Positions 1-5,502 are shown, counted from the stretch's first letter. The stretch: DNA of 5,554 nt from a virus (IMGVR_UViG_3300045988_005313:1-5554), one strand, 5' to 3'. The notes: generated by a model from the letters alone, not told the origin. Made by a program: numbers and translations.

Positions 1-99
1 GTTTTTTTTTTTTTTTGGTAAAATGTAGAAAAAAGGAGGTGAGATTAATGAGCTACCGAAAAAGCGTAAATCCCAAGACGGACAAGAAGGTCTTTACCA
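1..99. repeat. Terminal direct repeat, copy 1 (identical to 5456..5554). It marks a circular genome linearised with overlap.
   Basis: Base-by-base comparison. G + T15 + GGTAAAATGTAGAAAAAAGGAGGTGAGATTAATGAGCTACCGAAAAAGCGTAAATCCCAAGACGGACAAGAAGGTCTTTACCA occurs at both ends with an offset of 5455 nt. Confidence 0.95.
16..24 (+). promoter_or_regulatory. Candidate extended -10 promoter, TGgTAAAAT, directly after the T15 tract. The second copy is at 5471..5479.
   Basis: T16 G17 g18 followed by TAAAAT at 19..24 fits the TGnTATAAT extended -10 pattern. There is no good -35, which extended -10 promoters can lack. The predicted start near 31 would leave the RBS at 33..41 and the ATG at 48 in the leader. 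Confidence 0.35.
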
Positions 100-167
100 A
101 CACCGCAAAAAAGACCAAGAAAATCAACGTGAATCCGAAACCCAGCCGGGGAGGAATCAGATTATGA
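48..167 (+). CDS. Small, highly basic 39-aa protein (MSYRKSVNPKTDKKVFTNTAKKTKKINVNPKPSRGGIRL). Putative DNA-binding/packaging protein, analogous to phiX174 J or gokushovirus ORF8.
   Basis: Hand translation. ATG 48 is preceded by AAGGAGGTG (33..41) with a 6-nt spacer. It has 9 K + 3 R against 1 D. The stop TGA 165..167 overlaps the next ATG (164) as ATGA. It is the first ORF after the terminator/promoter region. It is absent from the ORF track only because it is shorter than 60 aa. Confidence 0.65.
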   Translation: MSYRKSVNPKTDKKVFTNTAKKTKKINVNPKPSRGGIRL

Positions 168-346
168 AAGACGTGGTGAACGTTTACATCGACCACGAAT
201 GCAAAGACGAACTTCTGGACTGGGCAGAAGAATTTAAGACCAGCAGAAGCAAAGCAGCAGCAGTGGCCGTAAAGATCGGGCTGAAACACAAAGAAGAAAT
301 GTACAACCAGCTAGACAAAGAATGGAGAGAAAAATATGCTTTTTGA
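164..346 (+). CDS. 60-aa hypothetical protein with a ribbon-helix-helix-like pattern (possible CopG/Arc-type DNA-binding protein).
   Basis: GGAGG at 150..154 lies 9 nt upstream of ATG 164, and the ATGA overlap joins it to the upstream ORF. The sequence VNVYIDHECKDELLDWAEEFKTSRSKAAAVAVKIGL aligns without gaps to the beta-strand/helix/turn/helix pattern of CopG (LTITLSESVLENLEKMAREMGLSKSAMISVALENY). Confidence 0.55.
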   Translation: MKDVVNVYIDHECKDELLDWAEEFKTSRSKAAAVAVKIGLKHKEEMYNQLDKEWREKYAF

Positions 347-587
347 AATTTACAGCATCAAAGACGAACTCGCAGGGACTTTCGGCAACCTGATGGTGGT
401 CAACCCGAAGGTGGCAGCACGAACCTTCCGGTGGATGACCGAGGAGATGGAAAAGGCCGACTGCGCGGACAAGCGCGTGTACAAGATGGCAGAGTACGAC
501 AACGAAACCGGCAAGATCATGCCAATCATGCCGGAAATGGTGTACAACATCGAACAGGCGAAAAAGGAGATCACCGATAATGGTTAA
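336..587 (+). CDS. VP5: Gokushovirus VP5-like non-structural protein (83 aa).
   Basis: The N-terminus MLFEIYSIKDELAGTF...AARTFRW and the later YDNETGKI segment fit the VP5 family pattern as I remember it. GGAGA at 324..328 lies 7 nt upstream. It overlaps the upstream ORF by 11 nt and VP3 by 8 nt. Its position directly upstream of VP3 is as in gokushoviruses. Confidence 0.75.
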   Translation: MLFEIYSIKDELAGTFGNLMVVNPKVAARTFRWMTEEMEKADCADKRVYKMAEYDNETGKIMPIMPEMVYNIEQAKKEITDNG

Positions 588-1071
588 AATATACAAACCA
601 TACGGCGATGAGAAGCCGGAAGCCAAACCGAACAATCCCGGCAACCAGTACGAACCGGAGTATAAAGAGCGGTACGATGAAAACGGGGAAGCATACCTCG
701 AAAAAGTGGGCGAGGTGGACACCTACGAAAAAATCCAGAGCTACCGCGACGAATGCGATGTGATGGCAATCCTCAGCCGGTACGCTGCCGGTGATGAAAC
801 GGCACTCGCAAGACCGGGGTACTACATCGACACAACCAAACTGCCCGCAACGTACACCGAATATATCAACATGATGCGAGACCAGCGCGAGAAGTTCGAT
901 CAGCTGCCGCTGAGCATCCGTCAGGCGTTTGGCATGAGCTTCGAAAAGTGGGCAGCAAGCGCCGGTGAACAGGAATGGTGTGAAAAAATGGGCATTTTGC
1001 CGAAAACAAGCGCTGCAGCACAGCCTGATCAGAGCGCCGAAAATGACAAAGTGCACAAAAAGGAGGAATAA
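580..1071 (+). CDS. VP3: Internal scaffolding protein VP3 (163 aa).
   Basis: The segment SYRDECDVMAILSRYAAGDE...EKFDQLPLSIRQAFGMSFEKW resembles conserved gokushovirus VP3 blocks. AAGGAGA at 564..570 lies upstream. The gene sits directly upstream of VP1. Confidence 0.8.
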   Translation: MVKIYKPYGDEKPEAKPNNPGNQYEPEYKERYDENGEAYLEKVGEVDTYEKIQSYRDECDVMAILSRYAAGDETALARPGYYIDTTKLPATYTEYINMMRDQREKFDQLPLSIRQAFGMSFEKWAASAGEQEWCEKMGILPKTSAAAQPDQSAENDKVHKKEE

Positions 1072-1076
1072 AAAGC

Positions 1077-2798
1077 ATGAACCGCAACAGCGAACAGCAT
1101 TATAGCCAAGTGCCACACGCAGAAATCCGGCGAGCCAGATTCAAGCGAGATTTCAGCCTGCTGACAACCATCAACGAAGGCGATCTTGTACCGATCTACT
1201 GTGATGAGGTACTTCCTGCAGATACCTTCAAAATCAACCTAAACAGTCTGGTGCGCATGGCAACCCCACTTTATCCAGTTATGGATAACGCGTACATGGA
1301 CTTCTATTTCTTCTTTGTTCCGGCACGTCTGCTGTGGGATCACTTTGTAAATCTGATGGGACAGAACGATAAAACGTTCTGGGCAGAGACAACCGAATAC
1401 ACGACACCGGTAACCACTGCACCCGCTGGGGGCTGGAAAGTTGGCACGATCGCGGACTATTTCGGCATTCCTACCGGAGTAAGCGGGCTGAAAGTCAACT
1501 CCATGCCGTTCCGAGCTTATGTAAAGATCTGGAACGAATGGTTTCGAGACGAAAATCTCCAGCAGCCGGCACAGATGACCATGGGAGACGAAACAACCAC
1601 CGGCAGCAACGGCGAAGCAACCGGCAAGCAGAATGAGCTTAGCAAGTCGACCTTGCCGCTGACGCTGGGCGGAGAAACCGACTACATCACCGAAGCACAG
1701 AAAGGCGCAAAGCCGCTGAAAGTCTGCAAATACAAAGACTACTTTACCAGCTGTCTGCCTTCACCGCTCAAAGCAGCAGAACCGGTGAGCATCCCGATGA
1801 CAGGCAACGCAGCTGTAAGTCTGTATGACAATCAGCAACTGACGAACAAAACATCGACAAGCGAATACATCTTCCTGAACAGCACAGATAAAAACTTCAC
1901 AGTAGGAACAACGCCATATATCACGAACTGGCCAACAACATACAACAAGGGAAAACCGGCACTGATCAACGGAGCAAAAGACGTAAACAGCGCAACACAA
2001 AACGACGCATTTCTGGGGGCAGATTTGAGCACCGTGAGTGCAACGACCATCAACGAGCTGCGCAACGCAATCGCGGTGCAGCACATCTTTGAGAGAGACG
2101 CCAGAACCGGCACGCGGTACAAAGAAATCCTCAACGGTGCATGGGGCGTGACCAGCCCGGACGCACGGCTTGACCGAAGCGAATACATCGGCGGCTACAG
2201 AATGCCGATCAATATCAATCAGGTAATCCAAACGTCCAGCACCGACACGACCAGCCCGCAAGGCAACACAGCAGCGTACAGCATGACAACCTTGAGCCGG
2301 GAAATGTGCACATACTCGGCAACGGAGCACGGCTATGTGATCGGACTGGCAGCGGCGCGAGTAGATCACAGTTACCAGCAGGGACTTTCGAGGATGTGGA
2401 CAAGAAGCACCAGATTCACGTACTACGACCCGATGCTGGCAAACCTCGGTGAACAGGCAGTACTGAATCAGGAAATCTATGCACAGGGCAACGCAACCGA
2501 CACGGAAGTGTTTGGTTACCAGGAGGCCTGGGCCGATTATCGGTACAGGACTAACATGGTAACAAGCGAAATGCGCAGCAGCTACGCACAGACGCTGGAC
2601 GCATGGCACTACGCCGACAAGTACAACGAGCTGCCGAAGCTGTCTAGCAGCTGGATCAAGGAAGGTACGGAGAACATCGACAGGACGCTGGCAGTAAAAA
2701 GCGGTCTGTCTCACCAATTTATCTGCAACTTCTTCTATGATCAGACGTGGACGCGTCCCATGCCTATTTACAGCGTACCGGGTCTGGACACGATCTAA
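1077..2798 (+). CDS. VP1: Major capsid protein VP1 (573 aa), Microviridae F-protein family.
   Basis: Hallmark N-terminal blocks are present: FKRDFSLLTTINEGDLVPIYCDEVLPADTF, RMATPLYPVMDNAYMDFYFFFVPARLLWDHF, ADYFGIP, FRAYVKIWNEWFRD, DYFTSCLP and TINELRNAIAVQHIFERDARTGTRYKEIL. AGGAGG at 1061..1066 lies 10 nt upstream. Confidence 0.97.
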   Translation: MNRNSEQHYSQVPHAEIRRARFKRDFSLLTTINEGDLVPIYCDEVLPADTFKINLNSLVRMATPLYPVMDNAYMDFYFFFVPARLLWDHFVNLMGQNDKTFWAETTEYTTPVTTAPAGGWKVGTIADYFGIPTGVSGLKVNSMPFRAYVKIWNEWFRDENLQQPAQMTMGDETTTGSNGEATGKQNELSKSTLPLTLGGETDYITEAQKGAKPLKVCKYKDYFTSCLPSPLKAAEPVSIPMTGNAAVSLYDNQQLTNKTSTSEYIFLNSTDKNFTVGTTPYITNWPTTYNKGKPALINGAKDVNSATQNDAFLGADLSTVSATTINELRNAIAVQHIFERDARTGTRYKEILNGAWGVTSPDARLDRSEYIGGYRMPININQVIQTSSTDTTSPQGNTAAYSMTTLSREMCTYSATEHGYVIGLAAARVDHSYQQGLSRMWTRSTRFTYYDPMLANLGEQAVLNQEIYAQGNATDTEVFGYQEAWADYRYRTNMVTSEMRSSYAQTLDAWHYADKYNELPKLSSSWIKEGTENIDRTLAVKSGLSHQFICNFFYDQTWTRPMPIYSVPGLDTI

Positions 2799-2810: not shown

Positions 2811-3734
2811 ATGGGATGGGAAGCAATCCTTCTGCAAGCACTGCCGACCCTGATAAACGTAGCTGGAAACCTCCTGCAAACCGGAATCAGCAACTTGGGC
2901 AGCGCAAAAAGCAGCCAAACAATGAACAATAGCACCGAAACGAGCAGCAGCACAAGCACCAGCACGAGCGGAAGCATGACAGAAAGCGGTGAAACAACCA
3001 GACAAGGAAGCATCTCAGGAATTGCAGATGCACTAAAAACGGCAATGGGAACACCGACCGGCAACAACAGCCAAACTGCGGGAAACTTCAACGCGATGCA
3101 AACGCAAACCGCAAACAACCTGCAAACCGGACAGTGGACAATGGCAAACATGATGAACATGTTCTCAAATCTGGTAAGCAACGGCCTAGACTATGCAAGC
3201 ATGACCAGCGCAAGGCAGTACAACAGCAAAGAAGCAGCTGTACAACGCGAATGGTCAGAAAGAATGAGCAGCACCGCATACCAACGCGGGGTGAAAGACC
3301 TACAAGCGGCAGGGCTTAACCCGGTACTAGCAGCATACAACGGTTTCGGGGCAAGCAGTCCAAGCGGAGGAACAGCAAGCACCGGTATGCAAAACTTTGC
3401 ACAGACCAGTGCAGCAGCAATACCGTCAGCGCACACCGCAACAATGCAAGCCATGTACGACTACGGCAACAACACAGCCCAGTTTCTGCAAAACGCAATG
3501 CAAGTTATCAGCAACGCGAAAGAAACAAGTCAGTACGGCATGGCACGAAGTATGCAGAACATTGCAAACCAGATCAGCACCAGCAGCGCAAAGACAGTGC
3601 AGAACATAACGCAAGATCAAAGTAGCCAAACATACACGGATAAACTTGCAGGAGTACCAAAGATCGACATACCAAGCGATAAGAAGAAGCAAGGAGGGTT
3701 TACACACGGGGGAGGCGGAGGCCGCGGGAGATAA
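2811..3734 (+). CDS. VP2: Minor capsid / DNA pilot protein VP2 (307 aa).
   Basis: It carries the conserved gokushovirus VP2 block MSSTAYQRGVKDLQAAGLNPVLA (nt 3267..3335). It is Q/N/S/T/A-rich, with a hydrophobic N-terminus. GAGGTG at 2800..2805 lies 5 nt upstream. It sits directly downstream of VP1. Confidence 0.9.
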   Translation: MGWEAILLQALPTLINVAGNLLQTGISNLGSAKSSQTMNNSTETSSSTSTSTSGSMTESGETTRQGSISGIADALKTAMGTPTGNNSQTAGNFNAMQTQTANNLQTGQWTMANMMNMFSNLVSNGLDYASMTSARQYNSKEAAVQREWSERMSSTAYQRGVKDLQAAGLNPVLAAYNGFGASSPSGGTASTGMQNFAQTSAAAIPSAHTATMQAMYDYGNNTAQFLQNAMQVISNAKETSQYGMARSMQNIANQISTSSAKTVQNITQDQSSQTYTDKLAGVPKIDIPSDKKKQGGFTHGGGGGRGR

Positions 3735-3737
3735 GCA

Positions 3738-3766
3738 TTGACAGATGTAGAAAAGAGGTGTATACT
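3738..3766 (+). promoter_or_regulatory. Near-consensus sigma70-type promoter: TTGACA (3738..3743), 17-nt spacer, TATACT (3761..3766).
   Basis: Read directly. The -35 box is perfect, the spacing is optimal at 17 nt, and the -10 box matches 5 of 6. It lies in the 75-nt gap between the VP2 stop (3734) and ATG 3810. The predicted start near 3773..3775 leaves the RBS AAGGAG (3797..3802) in the leader. Confidence 0.5.
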
Positions 3767-3809
3767 ATGGGTGTATCAATCGTACACTTTAAGCCAAAGG
3801 AGCAGTAAA

Positions 3810-4019
3810 ATGAAAAGCCAAGTGAGCAAGAGAATCAATATAAATCTAACAGACCGCGAGATCGTAGCACTCGAAAGGCTTCAAGACGAAATGACAACAC
3901 GGAACTGGAAGATGAACCAAAGCGACATCATCAGGGAAGCAATCGTATACTACTGCATGAGAGAGACGGGAGCAGTATTTGCAAACGAGTGGAAACCGAA
4001 GGAAAAGGAGCAAAGTTGA
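3810..4019 (+). CDS. 69-aa ribbon-helix-helix protein, CopG/Arc/MetJ-like putative transcriptional repressor.
   Basis: I chose ATG 3810 with AAGGAG 7 nt upstream over the track's TTG 3738 start. The sequence SKRININLTDREIVALERLQDEM-(loop)-NQSDIIREAIVYYCM matches the RHH pattern of CopG (KKRLTITLSESVLENLEKMAREMG-LSKSAMISVALENY): alternating beta-strand, helix A, then helix B starting with an N/S-x-S/D cap. Confidence 0.7.
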   Translation: MKSQVSKRININLTDREIVALERLQDEMTTRNWKMNQSDIIREAIVYYCMRETGAVFANEWKPKEKEQS

Positions 4020-4034
4020 CGCGGTTACACCGCG
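4020..4034 (+). repeat. Short GC-rich hairpin directly after the RHH gene stop (CGCGGT tac ACCGCG).
   Basis: 6-bp perfect stem (4020-4025 / 4029-4034) with a 3-nt loop. No T tail follows, so it is not a canonical intrinsic terminator. Confidence 0.6.
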
Positions 4035-4068
4035 CCAATGGGCAACAATAATCCATGGGAAAAAATGA

Positions 4069-4079
4069 GCGGGAGCTAA
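4069..4079 (+). repeat. 11-nt direct repeat GCGGGAGCTAA, copy 1 (copy 2 at 5379..5389).
   Basis: Exact match read in both intergenic regions flanking VP4. Each copy lies just upstream of a long bulged hairpin with a G5/C5 block. Confidence 0.85.
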
Positions 4080-4089
4080 ATTTTGTGTC

Positions 4090-4129
4090 AGTGGGGGGAA
4101 TAGACATCAAGAGGGTCTATTCCCCCACT
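4090..4129 (+). repeat. Long stem-loop: 15 bp, one bulged G, 9-nt loop ATCAAGAGG.
   Basis: AGT(G)GGGGGAATAGAC pairs with GTCTATTCCCCCACT. I checked the pairing position by position from 4090-4129 in to 4105-4115, with G4093 bulged. Confidence 0.85.
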
Positions 4130-4157
4130 CTCCCCGGGAAGGAGGAAACGTCCATAC

Positions 4158-5306
4158 ATGGCATGTGCAAGGCCGAACATAAGAATTTTTAGCGATACCG
4201 ACAAAGACTATTTTGCACCGCTGGACTGGTACATACAGCACGGCAAAAAAAGAACCGGCAAGCCGGACATGATAGCAACACAGAAAAGGCGCGAGCGCCA
4301 GCTGAAGGAGATGATCAAGACCGGCGAAGCAGTGCTATGCCCGTGCAAACGCTGCAATGGCTGCATCATGGACAGGGGCAAGAGCTGGGCAAACAGAATG
4401 GAGATGGAGCTGCCATACCATGATCAAGCGTGGTTTTTGACGTTGACTTATGATAACGATCACGCGCCAATGAGCTATGATCAGGGACTAGGCATAGACG
4501 AGCTGACCGGCGAGGTAGTAACGGAAAACTTAACGCTTGACTATACGGACCTAGAAAAATTCTGGAAAAGGCTCAGACGCTGGACAGAGTACAACGATAA
4601 AGCAATCTACATAGACTACAACGGCAAGAAAAAAAATGATCTGATGTATTACGCTGGCGGCGAATACGGAGGAAAAACACACAGACCGCACTACCATGCA
4701 ATAGTATACGGCTTAAAAATTGAAAAAGAGGAGCTGAAAGAGTACAAGAGGGCAAAAGGCAAAGTATACTATACCTGCGAATGGCTCACGAAGCTATGGG
4801 GCAAAGGCTTTGTAATCATCGGTGCAGCGGAATGGCAGAGCATGGCATACACCGCAAGATACTGCACCAAAAAAAGCTATGGAGCAGGTGCAAAGGAATA
4901 TTACAAGAATCTGGCGATACAACCGGAAGATAGCAGAATGTCAACCAATCCGGCAATCGGATGGAGGTACTACGAAGAACATAAAGAGGAAATCTATAAA
5001 AACGACAAAATCCAACTCAAGAAAGGAAGGAGCTGTAAACCGCCTACATACTTCGACAAGCTCTTTGATCTGGAGCACTCAGAAGCCGAACCGCTGACGG
5101 AAGAAGAGTGCAAAGGCATTGAGGATGTAATAATAAAAGCCGAATCCGAAGAACTGAAAGAAATCAAGCGAAAAAGGCGAAAACTTGCCAATGACGCACT
5201 GTTTAATCAGCTCAAACAGACCGGCCTAACTATGCAAGAGTATTATAAACTAAAAGACCAACGGAATCAAGAAAAATTTAAACAGCTGATCAGAACCGAG
5301 GTATAG
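4158..5306 (+). CDS. VP4: Rolling-circle replication initiator VP4 (HUH endonuclease, phiX174 gpA family), 382 aa.
   Basis: Motif I is FLTLTY (nt 4434..4451). Motif II, the HUH motif, is RPHYHAIVY (HYH at 4689..4697). Motif III is the two-tyrosine YTARYCTKK (4848..4874), comparable to phiX gpA YVAKYVNKK. A Cys cluster CPCKRCNGC lies at 4338..4364. AAGGAGG is at 4139..4145. Confidence 0.95.
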   Translation: MACARPNIRIFSDTDKDYFAPLDWYIQHGKKRTGKPDMIATQKRRERQLKEMIKTGEAVLCPCKRCNGCIMDRGKSWANRMEMELPYHDQAWFLTLTYDNDHAPMSYDQGLGIDELTGEVVTENLTLDYTDLEKFWKRLRRWTEYNDKAIYIDYNGKKKNDLMYYAGGEYGGKTHRPHYHAIVYGLKIEKEELKEYKRAKGKVYYTCEWLTKLWGKGFVIIGAAEWQSMAYTARYCTKKSYGAGAKEYYKNLAIQPEDSRMSTNPAIGWRYYEEHKEEIYKNDKIQLKKGRSCKPPTYFDKLFDLEHSEAEPLTEEECKGIEDVIIKAESEELKEIKRKRRKLANDALFNQLKQTGLTMQEYYKLKDQRNQEKFKQLIRTEV

Positions 5307-5391: not shown

Positions 5392-5430
5392 AAGGGGGTT
5401 CACCACAAAGTGGTGACCCCCTTCTTTATT
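5392..5430 (+). terminator. Strong stem-loop (14 bp, one bulged T, loop AAA) followed by CTTCTTTATT. Possible first terminator after VP4, or an ssDNA structural signal.
   Basis: AAGGGGG(T)TCACCAC aaa GTGGTGACCCCCTT was paired position by position (5392-5423). The downstream tail is only partly T-rich. Confidence 0.4.
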
Positions 5431-5440
5431 ATGAGAACGC

Positions 5441-5471
5441 ACAAGGGAAGCCCTTGTTTTTTTTTTTTTTT
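5441..5471 (+). terminator. Rho-independent terminator: ACAAGGG aag CCCTTGT stem followed by a T15 run.
   Basis: 7-bp stem (5441-5447 / 5451-5457) with a 3-nt loop, running straight into 15 consecutive T (5457..5471, equal to 2..16 in copy 1). It lies downstream of the last gene of the single-strand gene array. Confidence 0.75.
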
Positions 5472-5502
5472 GGTAAAATGTAGAAAAAAGGAGGTGAGAT
5501 TA

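Follow-up and report, generated by a model that had tools for sequence, protein, structure and literature searches.

A probable ribbon-helix-helix gene with its own promoter ahead of the replication initiator gene of a gokushovirus-like microvirus: a candidate repressor-initiator cassette

Introduction

Does a microvirus carry a transcription factor of its own that sets the dose of its replication initiator? The question is raised by a 5,554-nt stretch of viral DNA (IMGVR_UViG_3300045988_005313:1-5554, hereafter the window), a gokushovirus-like Microviridae circle in which a 69-amino-acid (aa) open reading frame (ORF), headed by a consensus promoter, stands directly before VP4, the gene for the HUH rolling-circle replication initiator (Rep). 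An earlier note on this DNA had read the ORF as a CopG-like ribbon-helix-helix (RHH) gene and the whole arrangement as a plasmid cop-rep cassette, adding that classical Microviridae are not known to encode dedicated transcription factors. Our literature search likewise found no RHH, CopG-like or other such factor reported in this family and, to our knowledge, microviruses, with phiX174 as the model, have been described as regulating their genes only by differences in promoters, terminators and mRNA stability. In a global survey of 2022 the accessory genes comprised nothing but methyltransferases, lysis genes and small proteins left unexplained (PMC9239249).

A conserved small gene upstream of VP4

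The 69-aa ORF is a true gene under purifying selection. Its close relatives form 25 clusters at 90% identity, mostly from contigs of about 5 to 6 kb, and a profile search of 1.8 billion representatives returned 34 proteins (representatives at 50% identity), which are 55 to 125 aa long. All relatives are small proteins sharing the N-terminus MKSQ[IV]xKR[IV]N[IV]NLT and the motif SDIIR[DE]AI. The order VP2, 69-aa ORF, VP4 was seen in all 28 loci first collected, and promoter, ORF and gene order were found again in 56 distinct microvirus-size sequences. A family member is present on every viral contig whose VP4 is at least 49% identical to that of the window (41 of 41). The ratio of nonsynonymous to synonymous substitution rates (dN/dS, pairwise Nei-Gojobori) has a median of 0.22 over 29 pairs, with values of 0.06 to 0.12 for close pairs; by the same method the synonymous sites of the ORF are close to saturation, many dS values approaching or exceeding 1. 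The ORF that the earlier note had placed between VP2 and VP4 is thus maintained by selection in related genomes. The gene has nevertheless escaped annotation: among GenBank phage records 3091 have a VP4 match, of which only 6 carry the gene and none annotates it.

Translation would begin behind the Shine-Dalgarno sequence AAAGGAG (3796..3802), 7 nt 5' of the ATG, a signal of the AGGAG or GGGG type being found in all relatives. The start codon occupies 3810..3812 and not, as the earlier note had it, about 3811 to 3813. A 93-aa version starting at a TTG at position 3738 was discarded as an artefact, because this TTG is the -35 element itself; moreover, all relatives begin with MKSQ behind a Shine-Dalgarno sequence. 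An identical protein exists in NCBI nr as DAV20313.1, under the name 'MAG TPA: mRNA interferase EndoA [Microviridae sp.]', almost certainly a mislabel that we assume to stem from an automated match to a toxin-antitoxin complex whose antitoxin is an RHH protein. Two other identities were rejected: a type II antitoxin, as the gene is flanked by VP2 and VP4 and no toxin gene was seen among the other window ORFs scanned, and a ParG or omega partition or plasmid-maintenance protein, as no ParA-type partner ATPase gene was found among the ORFs of the 5.5-kb genome. Taken together, the features of the locus surpass chance expectation, mainly by their conservation.

Evidence for a ribbon-helix-helix fold

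The 69-aa protein is most likely an RHH protein, in line with the earlier note, as indicated by weak but concordant results from the AlphaFold core, Foldseek, Pfam, NCBIfam, PHROG, the PDB and hhalign. A predicted strand from K7 to T14 (KRININLT) alternates between R8, N10 and N12, which point outward, and I9, I11 and L13, which point inward. It is followed by a predicted helix 1 (residues 15 to 30), a helix 2 (37 to 53) and a tail specific to the subfamily, TGxxFANEWKPK. Modelled by AlphaFold with the family alignment (predicted local distance difference test, pLDDT, 77), the protein has an extended N-terminus and the same two helices, with pLDDT of 87 to 91 over residues 11 to 50; the strand is not scored as beta, and a monomer model cannot show a beta-ribbon. 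The residues conserved across the family are M1, K7, R8, N10, N12, L13, T14 and S38-D-I-I-R-E/D-A-I45. R8, N10 and N12 are kept in at least 90% of the 34 aligned members and are invariant among the 26 closest. The S38-D39 pair that opens helix 2 is invariant in the close family, the turn has no glycine, and the loop length differs by subfamily.

Structure and profile comparisons point the same way. The top Foldseek matches in the PDB, all with E-values above 1, include MazE-mt1, CdbA, NikR and VapB, and five of the first seven are RHH proteins, those four names among them. In BFVD, proteins named RHH or CopG come at ranks 7 and 13. When the 34 members were scanned singly, Pfam PF01402 (RHH_1) was matched by 17 (best 1.1e-4), the NCBIfam families aCcr1 and ORF56 copy control by 15 and 4, respectively, and PHROG 876, 'transcriptional repressor', by 16, and no unrelated family recurred in more than 3. 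Searched against the PDB, the close-family profile gave only noise and a wider alignment was required; the wide profile matched TTHA0139 (0.005), ParD and ORF56 of pRN1, with E-values from 0.005 to 0.4. Finally, hhalign aligned the family with 42 of the 45 residues of CopG (E 8e-5, probability 60%), pairing R8, N10 and N12 with R4, T6 and T8, the beta-strand positions that contact DNA in CopG. The most distant profile match, P0057 (E 1e-4; L113, 431..610), lies outside the microviruses and adjoins a divergently transcribed gene that looks XRE-like, a setting resembling the early regions of double-stranded DNA (dsDNA) prophages.

The promoter and its leader

The TTGACA-17-TATACT promoter claimed by the earlier note is present directly upstream of the gene. 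It matches the consensus at 11 of 12 positions and is the best and the sole such match in the window; with both strands of the 5554 nt counted, chance would yield about 0.07 matches of at least 11/12. Transcription is predicted to start near 3772..3774. In the 22 relatives whose upstream regions could be aligned, the TTGA of the -35 and the TATA of the -10 are invariant, and a stretch from the -35 to about +25 is nearly so (TTGACA, AGAAAAGA, GGTG, TATAnT, ATG, rGTGTA, nnAATCnn, ACAC), while the 3' end of VP2 is not alignable. Such constancy stands out because the dS of the ORF is about 1 in the same clade.

Within this stretch, three GTGTA half-sites span the -10 and the +1 region. They form a palindrome, GTGTA-N7-TACAC (3771..3787), for which 0.01 occurrences were expected, and a direct repeat of GGTGTAT, a word found three times in the window against 0.38 expected. 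The third GGTGTAT lies on the minus strand at 4847..4853, within the codons of the VP4 tyrosine motif (AYTARY), and is probably a coding coincidence. From its sequence, the element from the -10 to about +15 may be an operator for the RHH protein or else a host-type promoter core with a leader hairpin.

The element keeps company with the gene. Its core pattern matched 66 viral contigs, and 55 of microvirus size, together with the window, have a family member about 50 nt downstream, so that the two occur together in 56 of 56 microvirus-size sequences; the remaining 11 of the 66 carry the core without a downstream family member. Conversely, Dulem virus 202 (L112), a relative that lacks the RHH gene and whose VP4 is 49% identical, has neither gene nor element in its VP2-VP4 gap, and no consensus promoter was seen there.

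Three observations speak for an operator. Covariation in the leader palindrome is limited to one outer pair (GC 10, AU 8, GU 4, other 0), which argues that the element is conserved as sequence, beyond pairing. The residues of the strand that face outward show a conservation equal to that of this DNA. Moreover, two distant members with another promoter layout carry inverted (G/A)TGTA half-sites in the untranscribed spacer and over the -10: L117, with promoter TAGACA-17-TATCAT and the pair ATACATCA-N5-TGATGTAT, and L147, with TTGACA-17-TATAAT and ATACAT..AGTGTAT. Since these half-sites are in untranscribed DNA, a DNA operator is favoured over an RNA hairpin.

Two other candidates were set aside. 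The 13-codon mini-ORF of the leader, MGVSIVHFKPKEQ, is probably not a peptide gene: in the relatives' columns codon positions 1 and 2 vary and position 3 is invariant, the opposite of a coding pattern. A resemblance of positions 1..50 to the promoter spacer (ATGTAGAAAA.AG.GGTG) was rejected as a second operator, as the late region there runs from a T-run terminator through an extended -10 to the VP8 Shine-Dalgarno sequence and has no GTGTA site; it is treated as a purine-rich sequence of the Shine-Dalgarno type.

A possible early operon under the control of the RHH protein

We tentatively propose, by analogy with CopG and not by homology to its cassette, that the 69-aa gene and VP4 form an early operon repressed by the RHH protein, a reading that we consider quite possible and hold without firm confidence. 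The incoming single strand would be converted into the double-stranded replicative form, from which host RNA polymerase would fire at the promoter. Promoter and gene order are observed, and one early transcript would bear both genes, given that the 138-nt spacer between them has no predicted intrinsic terminator and no strong or conserved promoter (its sole promoter-like site is a weak 9/12 match, not seen in the relatives' spacers). An RHH dimer would then insert its beta-ribbon, with R8, N10 and N12, into the major groove at the GTGTA half-sites over the -10 and +1, and binding there would shut its own promoter down. The outcome would be a burst of Rep just after infection followed by throttling, as in the establishment of pMV158, where an unrepressed promoter is needed at first and the repressor subsequently limits the initiator (PMC5717011, PMC2724298). 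In the protein, the C-terminal part is variable and probably confers a second property that is specific to the lineage, for example contact with a partner or regulated turnover.

The further ideas of the earlier note, that such control could support a low-copy carrier state, pseudolysogeny or superinfection control, found no support. No family member was detected in 185,579 species-representative bacterial genomes, and no integrase-like ORF is present among those of the window, as the earlier note had said. Prophage or lysogeny was rejected on the same search, together with the lack of microvirus genes at the bacterial matches of the promoter core described below. Nor is a role in immunity supported: repressors of that kind usually diversify, but here both the promoter element and the residues that would read the DNA do not vary across the clade.

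The promoter core in gut Clostridia and the case against an RHH operator

Several observations weigh against the proposed repression, beginning with the fact that all the evidence is computational. Every similarity to RHH proteins falls below formal or curated thresholds, and the window protein by itself has no significant Pfam match; as each single line is below threshold, the case for the fold rests on the agreement among them. In the leader palindrome, departures from Watson-Crick pairing are nearly all of the G.U type, which suits pairing in RNA or in single-stranded DNA. The half-sites are spaced more widely, by 12 to 13 bp, than in the operators of CopG and Arc (9 bp), and L067, P0031 and P0032 have F or Y in place of N12, yet keep the same core.

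The most serious objection is that the core, GGTGTATAnWATGRGTGTAA, is shared by promoters of bacteria and dsDNA phages that have no family member. Combined with TTGACA at the -35 it amounts to 23 specified bases, for which well under one match is expected in the 185,579 genomes; the search returned five contigs (Agathobacter, Lachnospiraceae, Oscillospiraceae, Clostridiales and a putative Muribaculaceae metagenome-assembled genome, MAG), none of which carries microvirus genes or a 69-aa family protein. Downstream of these five matches lie, among others, trpS with a T-box-looking leader, a DUF2089-like regulator and small phage-like ORFs. Without the -35, the core gave 28 matches against about 17 expected, about 17 of the 28 in Firmicutes. 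Nine of the Firmicutes matches are orthologous thioredoxin loci of gut Eubacteriales, whose leader, GGTGTATAATATGGGTGTAA-loop-ACAC(C/T)C-AAAGGAG-ATG, repeats the microvirus layout. The bacterial MAG contigs with the core are L119 to L123, L128, L130, L132, L137, L138, L140, L143, L145 and L146; in addition, three dsDNA-phage contigs (L043, L050 and L056) have it with TTGACA at the correct distance. As the core is found at host promoters without such a gene, its invariance in the microviruses need not come from the RHH protein, and much of it may reflect a host promoter or leader constraint, which compromises the assignment of the operator.

These matches suggest that gut Clostridia and their mobile elements share the core as a type of promoter or leader that had not been described previously, a literature search on the core sequence having found nothing relevant. 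As the core is shared with gut Clostridia, it also suggests that Clostridia are the hosts of these microviruses, a clue for a group of microviruses of the human and pig gut for which no host has been cultured.

Variable tails and a possible anchor for replication

When the window is compared with L018, most of the two genomes is 90 to 98% identical, and the body of the RHH gene (3814..4047) only 52 to 68%, although it is flanked by a leader (95%) and a spacer (95 to 98%) that are conserved. Other divergent islands in this pair are found in VP1 (1800..2040) and in VP2 (2820..3160 and 3520..3750). The conserved non-coding DNA on both sides of the RHH island makes cassette exchange or diversifying selection likely. 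Further variation takes the form of duplications, with two tandem RHH copies in L023 and a fused two-domain duplicate in P0034, and of additional ORFs of 58 to 81 aa, which lie between leader and RHH gene in L001 (3769..3954), L115 (698..943) and L117 (2372..2548) and after the RHH gene in L149 (1279..1491). The promoter thus heads a small variable early cassette.

The tails differ by subfamily. An acidic tail followed by LPF or LPY (EEEDLPF, DDDDLPY, DDLPF) closes the protein in about 9 of the 55 members on viral contigs (L041, L062, L064, L070, L071, L074, L076, L078 and the second copy of L023) and in 5 of the 34 representatives (P0038, P0039, P0041, P0043 and P0047). The C-terminal tip of SSB (the protein that binds single-stranded DNA), DDDIPF or DDDLPF, docks PriA and other partners (PMC5531588), and the tailed relatives copy this tip. 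The 69-aa protein could accordingly be a sequence-specific DNA anchor for replication, binding the GTGTA repeats on the replicative form while host proteins of replication or repair are recruited or titrated through its variable tail. The position of the gene next to Rep and to a conserved hairpin would agree with such a role, as would its hypervariable body between near-identical flanks, reminiscent of the variable regions of VP1 and VP2. We nonetheless regard it as unlikely: the window group has TGxxFANEWKPK instead of an SSB-like tail, and the GTGTA repeats overlap the promoter and not the hairpin linked to VP4. Furthermore, in Streptococcus mutans LPF serves as a ClpXP degron as well (PMC5143411), and an unstable repressor would fit the tails equally well.

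A related idea, in our view rather improbable, goes beyond repression: the RHH protein would be a promoter- or origin-proximal anchor whose fast-evolving tail ties the replicative form to the host machinery. Under it, DDLPF tails could attract or titrate PriA and other SSB partners, or else mark the protein for ClpXP, and the FANEWKPK tail of the window subfamily would play an equivalent role. We know of no precedent for mimicry of the SSB tip on a sequence-specific DNA-binding protein of a single-stranded DNA (ssDNA) phage. The SSB-like tails of the relatives would suggest a new kind of host interface, and an anchor of this kind would be a microvirus host-interaction module that diversifies like capsid loops.

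Possible targets elsewhere, or a possible site for VP4

Alternatively, the RHH protein could be a transcription factor with its main targets elsewhere, at late phage genes or at host promoters with the same GGTGTATAAT..GGTGTAA core (those of thioredoxin, for example), the leader being a borrowed strong promoter of the host type with a 5' hairpin. The core and the GGTGTA-loop-ACACC-Shine-Dalgarno layout at thioredoxin genes of gut Eubacteriales, the core at other Clostridia and phage promoters, and the wobble-type covariation of the leader palindrome all speak for it. They are opposed by the distribution of the sites, for no intergenic GGTGTAT exists in the window beyond the two of the element (the third being inside VP4 codons) and the late promoter region lacks GTGTA. 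A hairpin is also hard to reconcile with a canonical start 7 nt past the -10, which would leave its left arm only partly transcribed, and with the half-sites of L117 and L147 in untranscribed DNA. This explanation thus seems decidedly unlikely.

The spacer itself is structured. Folded as single-stranded DNA, its 138 nt (4020..4157) give z = -4.3, better than all 200 shuffles. A small GC-rich hairpin follows the stop codon directly and might act as a weak attenuator or stabilise the mRNA at its 3' end; at other loci this place is taken by a comparable short GC hairpin of different sequence. The second structure, ending 11 nt 5' of the VP4 Shine-Dalgarno sequence, is far more constrained: in 16 diverse sequences its stem shows compensatory changes in 14 of 15 pairs with 96% of cells paired, a result that none of 500 shuffles reached, and its loop, of the form ATCAAG(A/T)(G/A)G, has a core ATCAAG that is, like the GTCA of the flank, fixed or nearly so. 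Dulem virus 202 also carries this hairpin (L112, about 2655..2700) despite lacking the RHH gene, so that the structure is to be assigned to VP4 and not to a circuit of the cop type. The length and folding that the earlier note had given for the spacer thus stand, whereas its use as part of a cop-type control element does not. Judged by its sequence, the structure is a candidate recognition or nick site for Rep, or origin, or else a structure controlling VP4 translation. A search in Rfam gave no match beyond sub-threshold miRNA-like hairpins.

A further possibility is that the leader element is itself a VP4 binding site or a part of the origin, with iterons by the promoter as in geminiviruses; the small protein would then be unrelated to it, for example antitoxin-like or involved in anti-defence. 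Direct and inverted repeats by a rep gene do resemble iterons, and the EndoA name carried by DAV20313.1 would suit an antitoxin. We find this very improbable, given that the scanned ORFs of the window include no toxin, that Dulem virus 202, with a VP4 49% identical, lacks the element yet keeps the VP4 hairpin, and that the core is found at bacterial housekeeping promoters. Lastly, that the small protein does not bind DNA and resembles RHH proteins by chance is hardly credible: sub-threshold scores and a monomer model that cannot display the ribbon would allow it, but four independent libraries and the PDB give RHH families, only RHH families recur across many members, and the conservation follows the RHH pattern, with an alternation of polar and hydrophobic residues in the strand and S/T-D where helix 2 begins.

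Genome organization and other small genes

The window ends in an exact 99-nt terminal overlap and thus represents a complete circle of 5455 nt. All genes of the gokushovirus type are on one strand (Table 1): an F-type capsid (VP1), a scaffold of the Chlamydia-phage type (VP3), the pilot protein (VP2), Rep (VP4), VP5 and VP8. Library matches of the window ORFs include PF02305 (1e-159), PF09675 (3e-32), PF20577, PF23343 and pilot-protein PHROGs. The HUH and YxxxY motifs noted earlier in VP4 are indeed there, as HYHAIV from residue 178 (nt 4689) and YTARY from residue 231 (nt 4848). The closest GenBank records, unverified entries for Microviridae of pig faeces, have a nucleotide identity of about 89 to 90%.

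Table 1. Coordinates of the genes and sequence elements of the window.
Feature	Position	Strand	Details
VP8-like basic protein	48..167	+	
60-aa ORF	164..346	+	
VP5	336..587	+	
VP3 scaffold	580..1071	+	
VP1	1077..2798	+	
VP2 pilot	2811..3734	+	
Sigma-70/sigma-A type promoter	3738..3766	+	-35 TTGACA 3738..3743, 17-nt spacer, -10 TATACT 3761..3766
Conserved element, -10 to about +15	3757..3787	+	GGTGTAT 3757..3763 (overlaps -10), GGTGTAT 3770..3776, inverted arm TACAC 3783..3787
13-codon mini-ORF	3767..3808	+	MGVSIVHFKPKEQ and stop, within leader
69-aa RHH-like gene	3810..4019	+	ATG 3810..3812, stop 4017..4019
GC-rich hairpin	4020..4034	+	CGCGGT-TAC-ACCGCG, directly after stop codon, no T-run
VP4-linked element	4083..4128	+	Flank TTGTGTCA 4083..4090; 14 to 15 bp hairpin 4091..4128; loop ATCAAGAGG 4106..4114
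VP4, HUH rolling-circle replication initiator	4158..5306	+	PF23343 1.2e-14, phrog_942 6e-89
Two hairpins with T-runs after VP4	5393..5470	+	GGGGGTCACC..GGTGACCCCC then TTCTTTATT; ACAAGGG-AAG-CCCTTGT then T15

Two predicted hairpins with T-runs after VP4 likely mark the end of the early transcription unit. The second, with T15, adjoins an extended -10, TGGTAAAAT, followed by AGGAGGTG and the VP8 start (5441..5500 equals 1..47 through the overlap), and the TGGTAAAAT region is likely to be a late promoter for the genes from VP8 to VP2. The T-run and TGGTAAAATG..AGGAGGTG are kept in about half of the relatives, the others having an extra ORF upstream of VP8.

The 60-aa ORF (MKDVVNVYIDHECKDELLDWAEEFKTSRSKAAAVAVKIGLKH..) looks like a second protein of the RHH type and has homologues in L002, L010, L038 and L099. 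Its profile matched best ORF56 of pRN1 (E 0.0049) and ArtA in the PDB, hhalign against the 69-aa family gave a probability of 54% (E 1.3e-4), and a single-sequence AlphaFold model (pLDDT 71) shows an extended N-terminus and two helices. In Dulem virus 202, a 70-aa 'hypothetical protein' encoded after VP4 (L112, 4083..4295; MRNNIRRKGRYKIQRTVYVSEKMEKIIQKH..SYQDTIIDIIEEGL) also has a strand-helix-helix pattern. Small RHH-like genes may therefore occupy other positions in other gut microviruses.

Comparison with known repressor-initiator systems

One parallel outside pMV158 is ORF56-ORF904 of the Sulfolobus plasmid pRN1, described in PMC4234260 as a CopG-like RHH repressor co-transcribed with a replication protein. 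In the PDB and NCBIfam, ORF56 ranks with the best matches of the 69-aa family, and in the PDB also with those of the 60-aa ORF. These matches are weak (E 1e-4 to 0.4), and pRN1 is an archaeal plasmid whose replication protein is a primase-polymerase. Phages also have RHH repressors: Arc and Mnt of P22, as presented in PMC2724298, are proteins of 53 to 82 aa that bind short inverted boxes, with operators overlapping the promoter they control. P22 is, in contrast, a temperate dsDNA phage in which they control an antirepressor and not a replication initiator, and no sequence match of the 69-aa family to Arc or Mnt was found. In geminiviruses and other circular Rep-encoding ssDNA viruses, repeats by the rep promoter limit rep transcription and Rep itself binds the iterons. 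Here the candidate binder is a separate small protein, and the hairpin whose loop is conserved is found in another place (4091..4128).

The resemblance to CopG-RepB of pMV158 is one of arrangement and presumed function. In both, a small RHH protein is encoded directly upstream of an HUH-type rolling-circle initiator gene, and apparently one sigma-70-type promoter with short repeats serves both genes. The differences are nevertheless numerous. VP4 matches PF23343, the microvirus type of Rep, and no other Pfam family at E <= 1, which sets it apart from RepB-type initiators; the small protein has 69 aa with an additional conserved tail, against 45 aa for CopG; and the candidate operator is at the -10 and +1, with 5-bp arms 7 bp apart and a direct repeat, whereas that of CopG is a 13-bp element over the -35. 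No equivalent of the antisense RNA II was found (no minus-strand promoter-like site within 4020..4200, which was not examined further, and nothing in Rfam), a long covarying hairpin separates the two genes, and the element is a virus and not a plasmid. Because the Rep family and the operator position differ and an antisense RNA was not found, the cop-rep reading of the earlier note holds as a resemblance in presumed function, with the locus an analogue and not a member of the pMV158 family. RHH autorepressors ahead of rep genes are already well known in plasmids, and what is new here is the setting in an ssDNA phage. If our proposal is correct, the 69-aa protein would be the first candidate trans-acting regulator in the Microviridae, clade-wide and so far unannotated, and the plasmid-style combination of repressor and initiator would have arisen in, or been captured by, an ssDNA phage.

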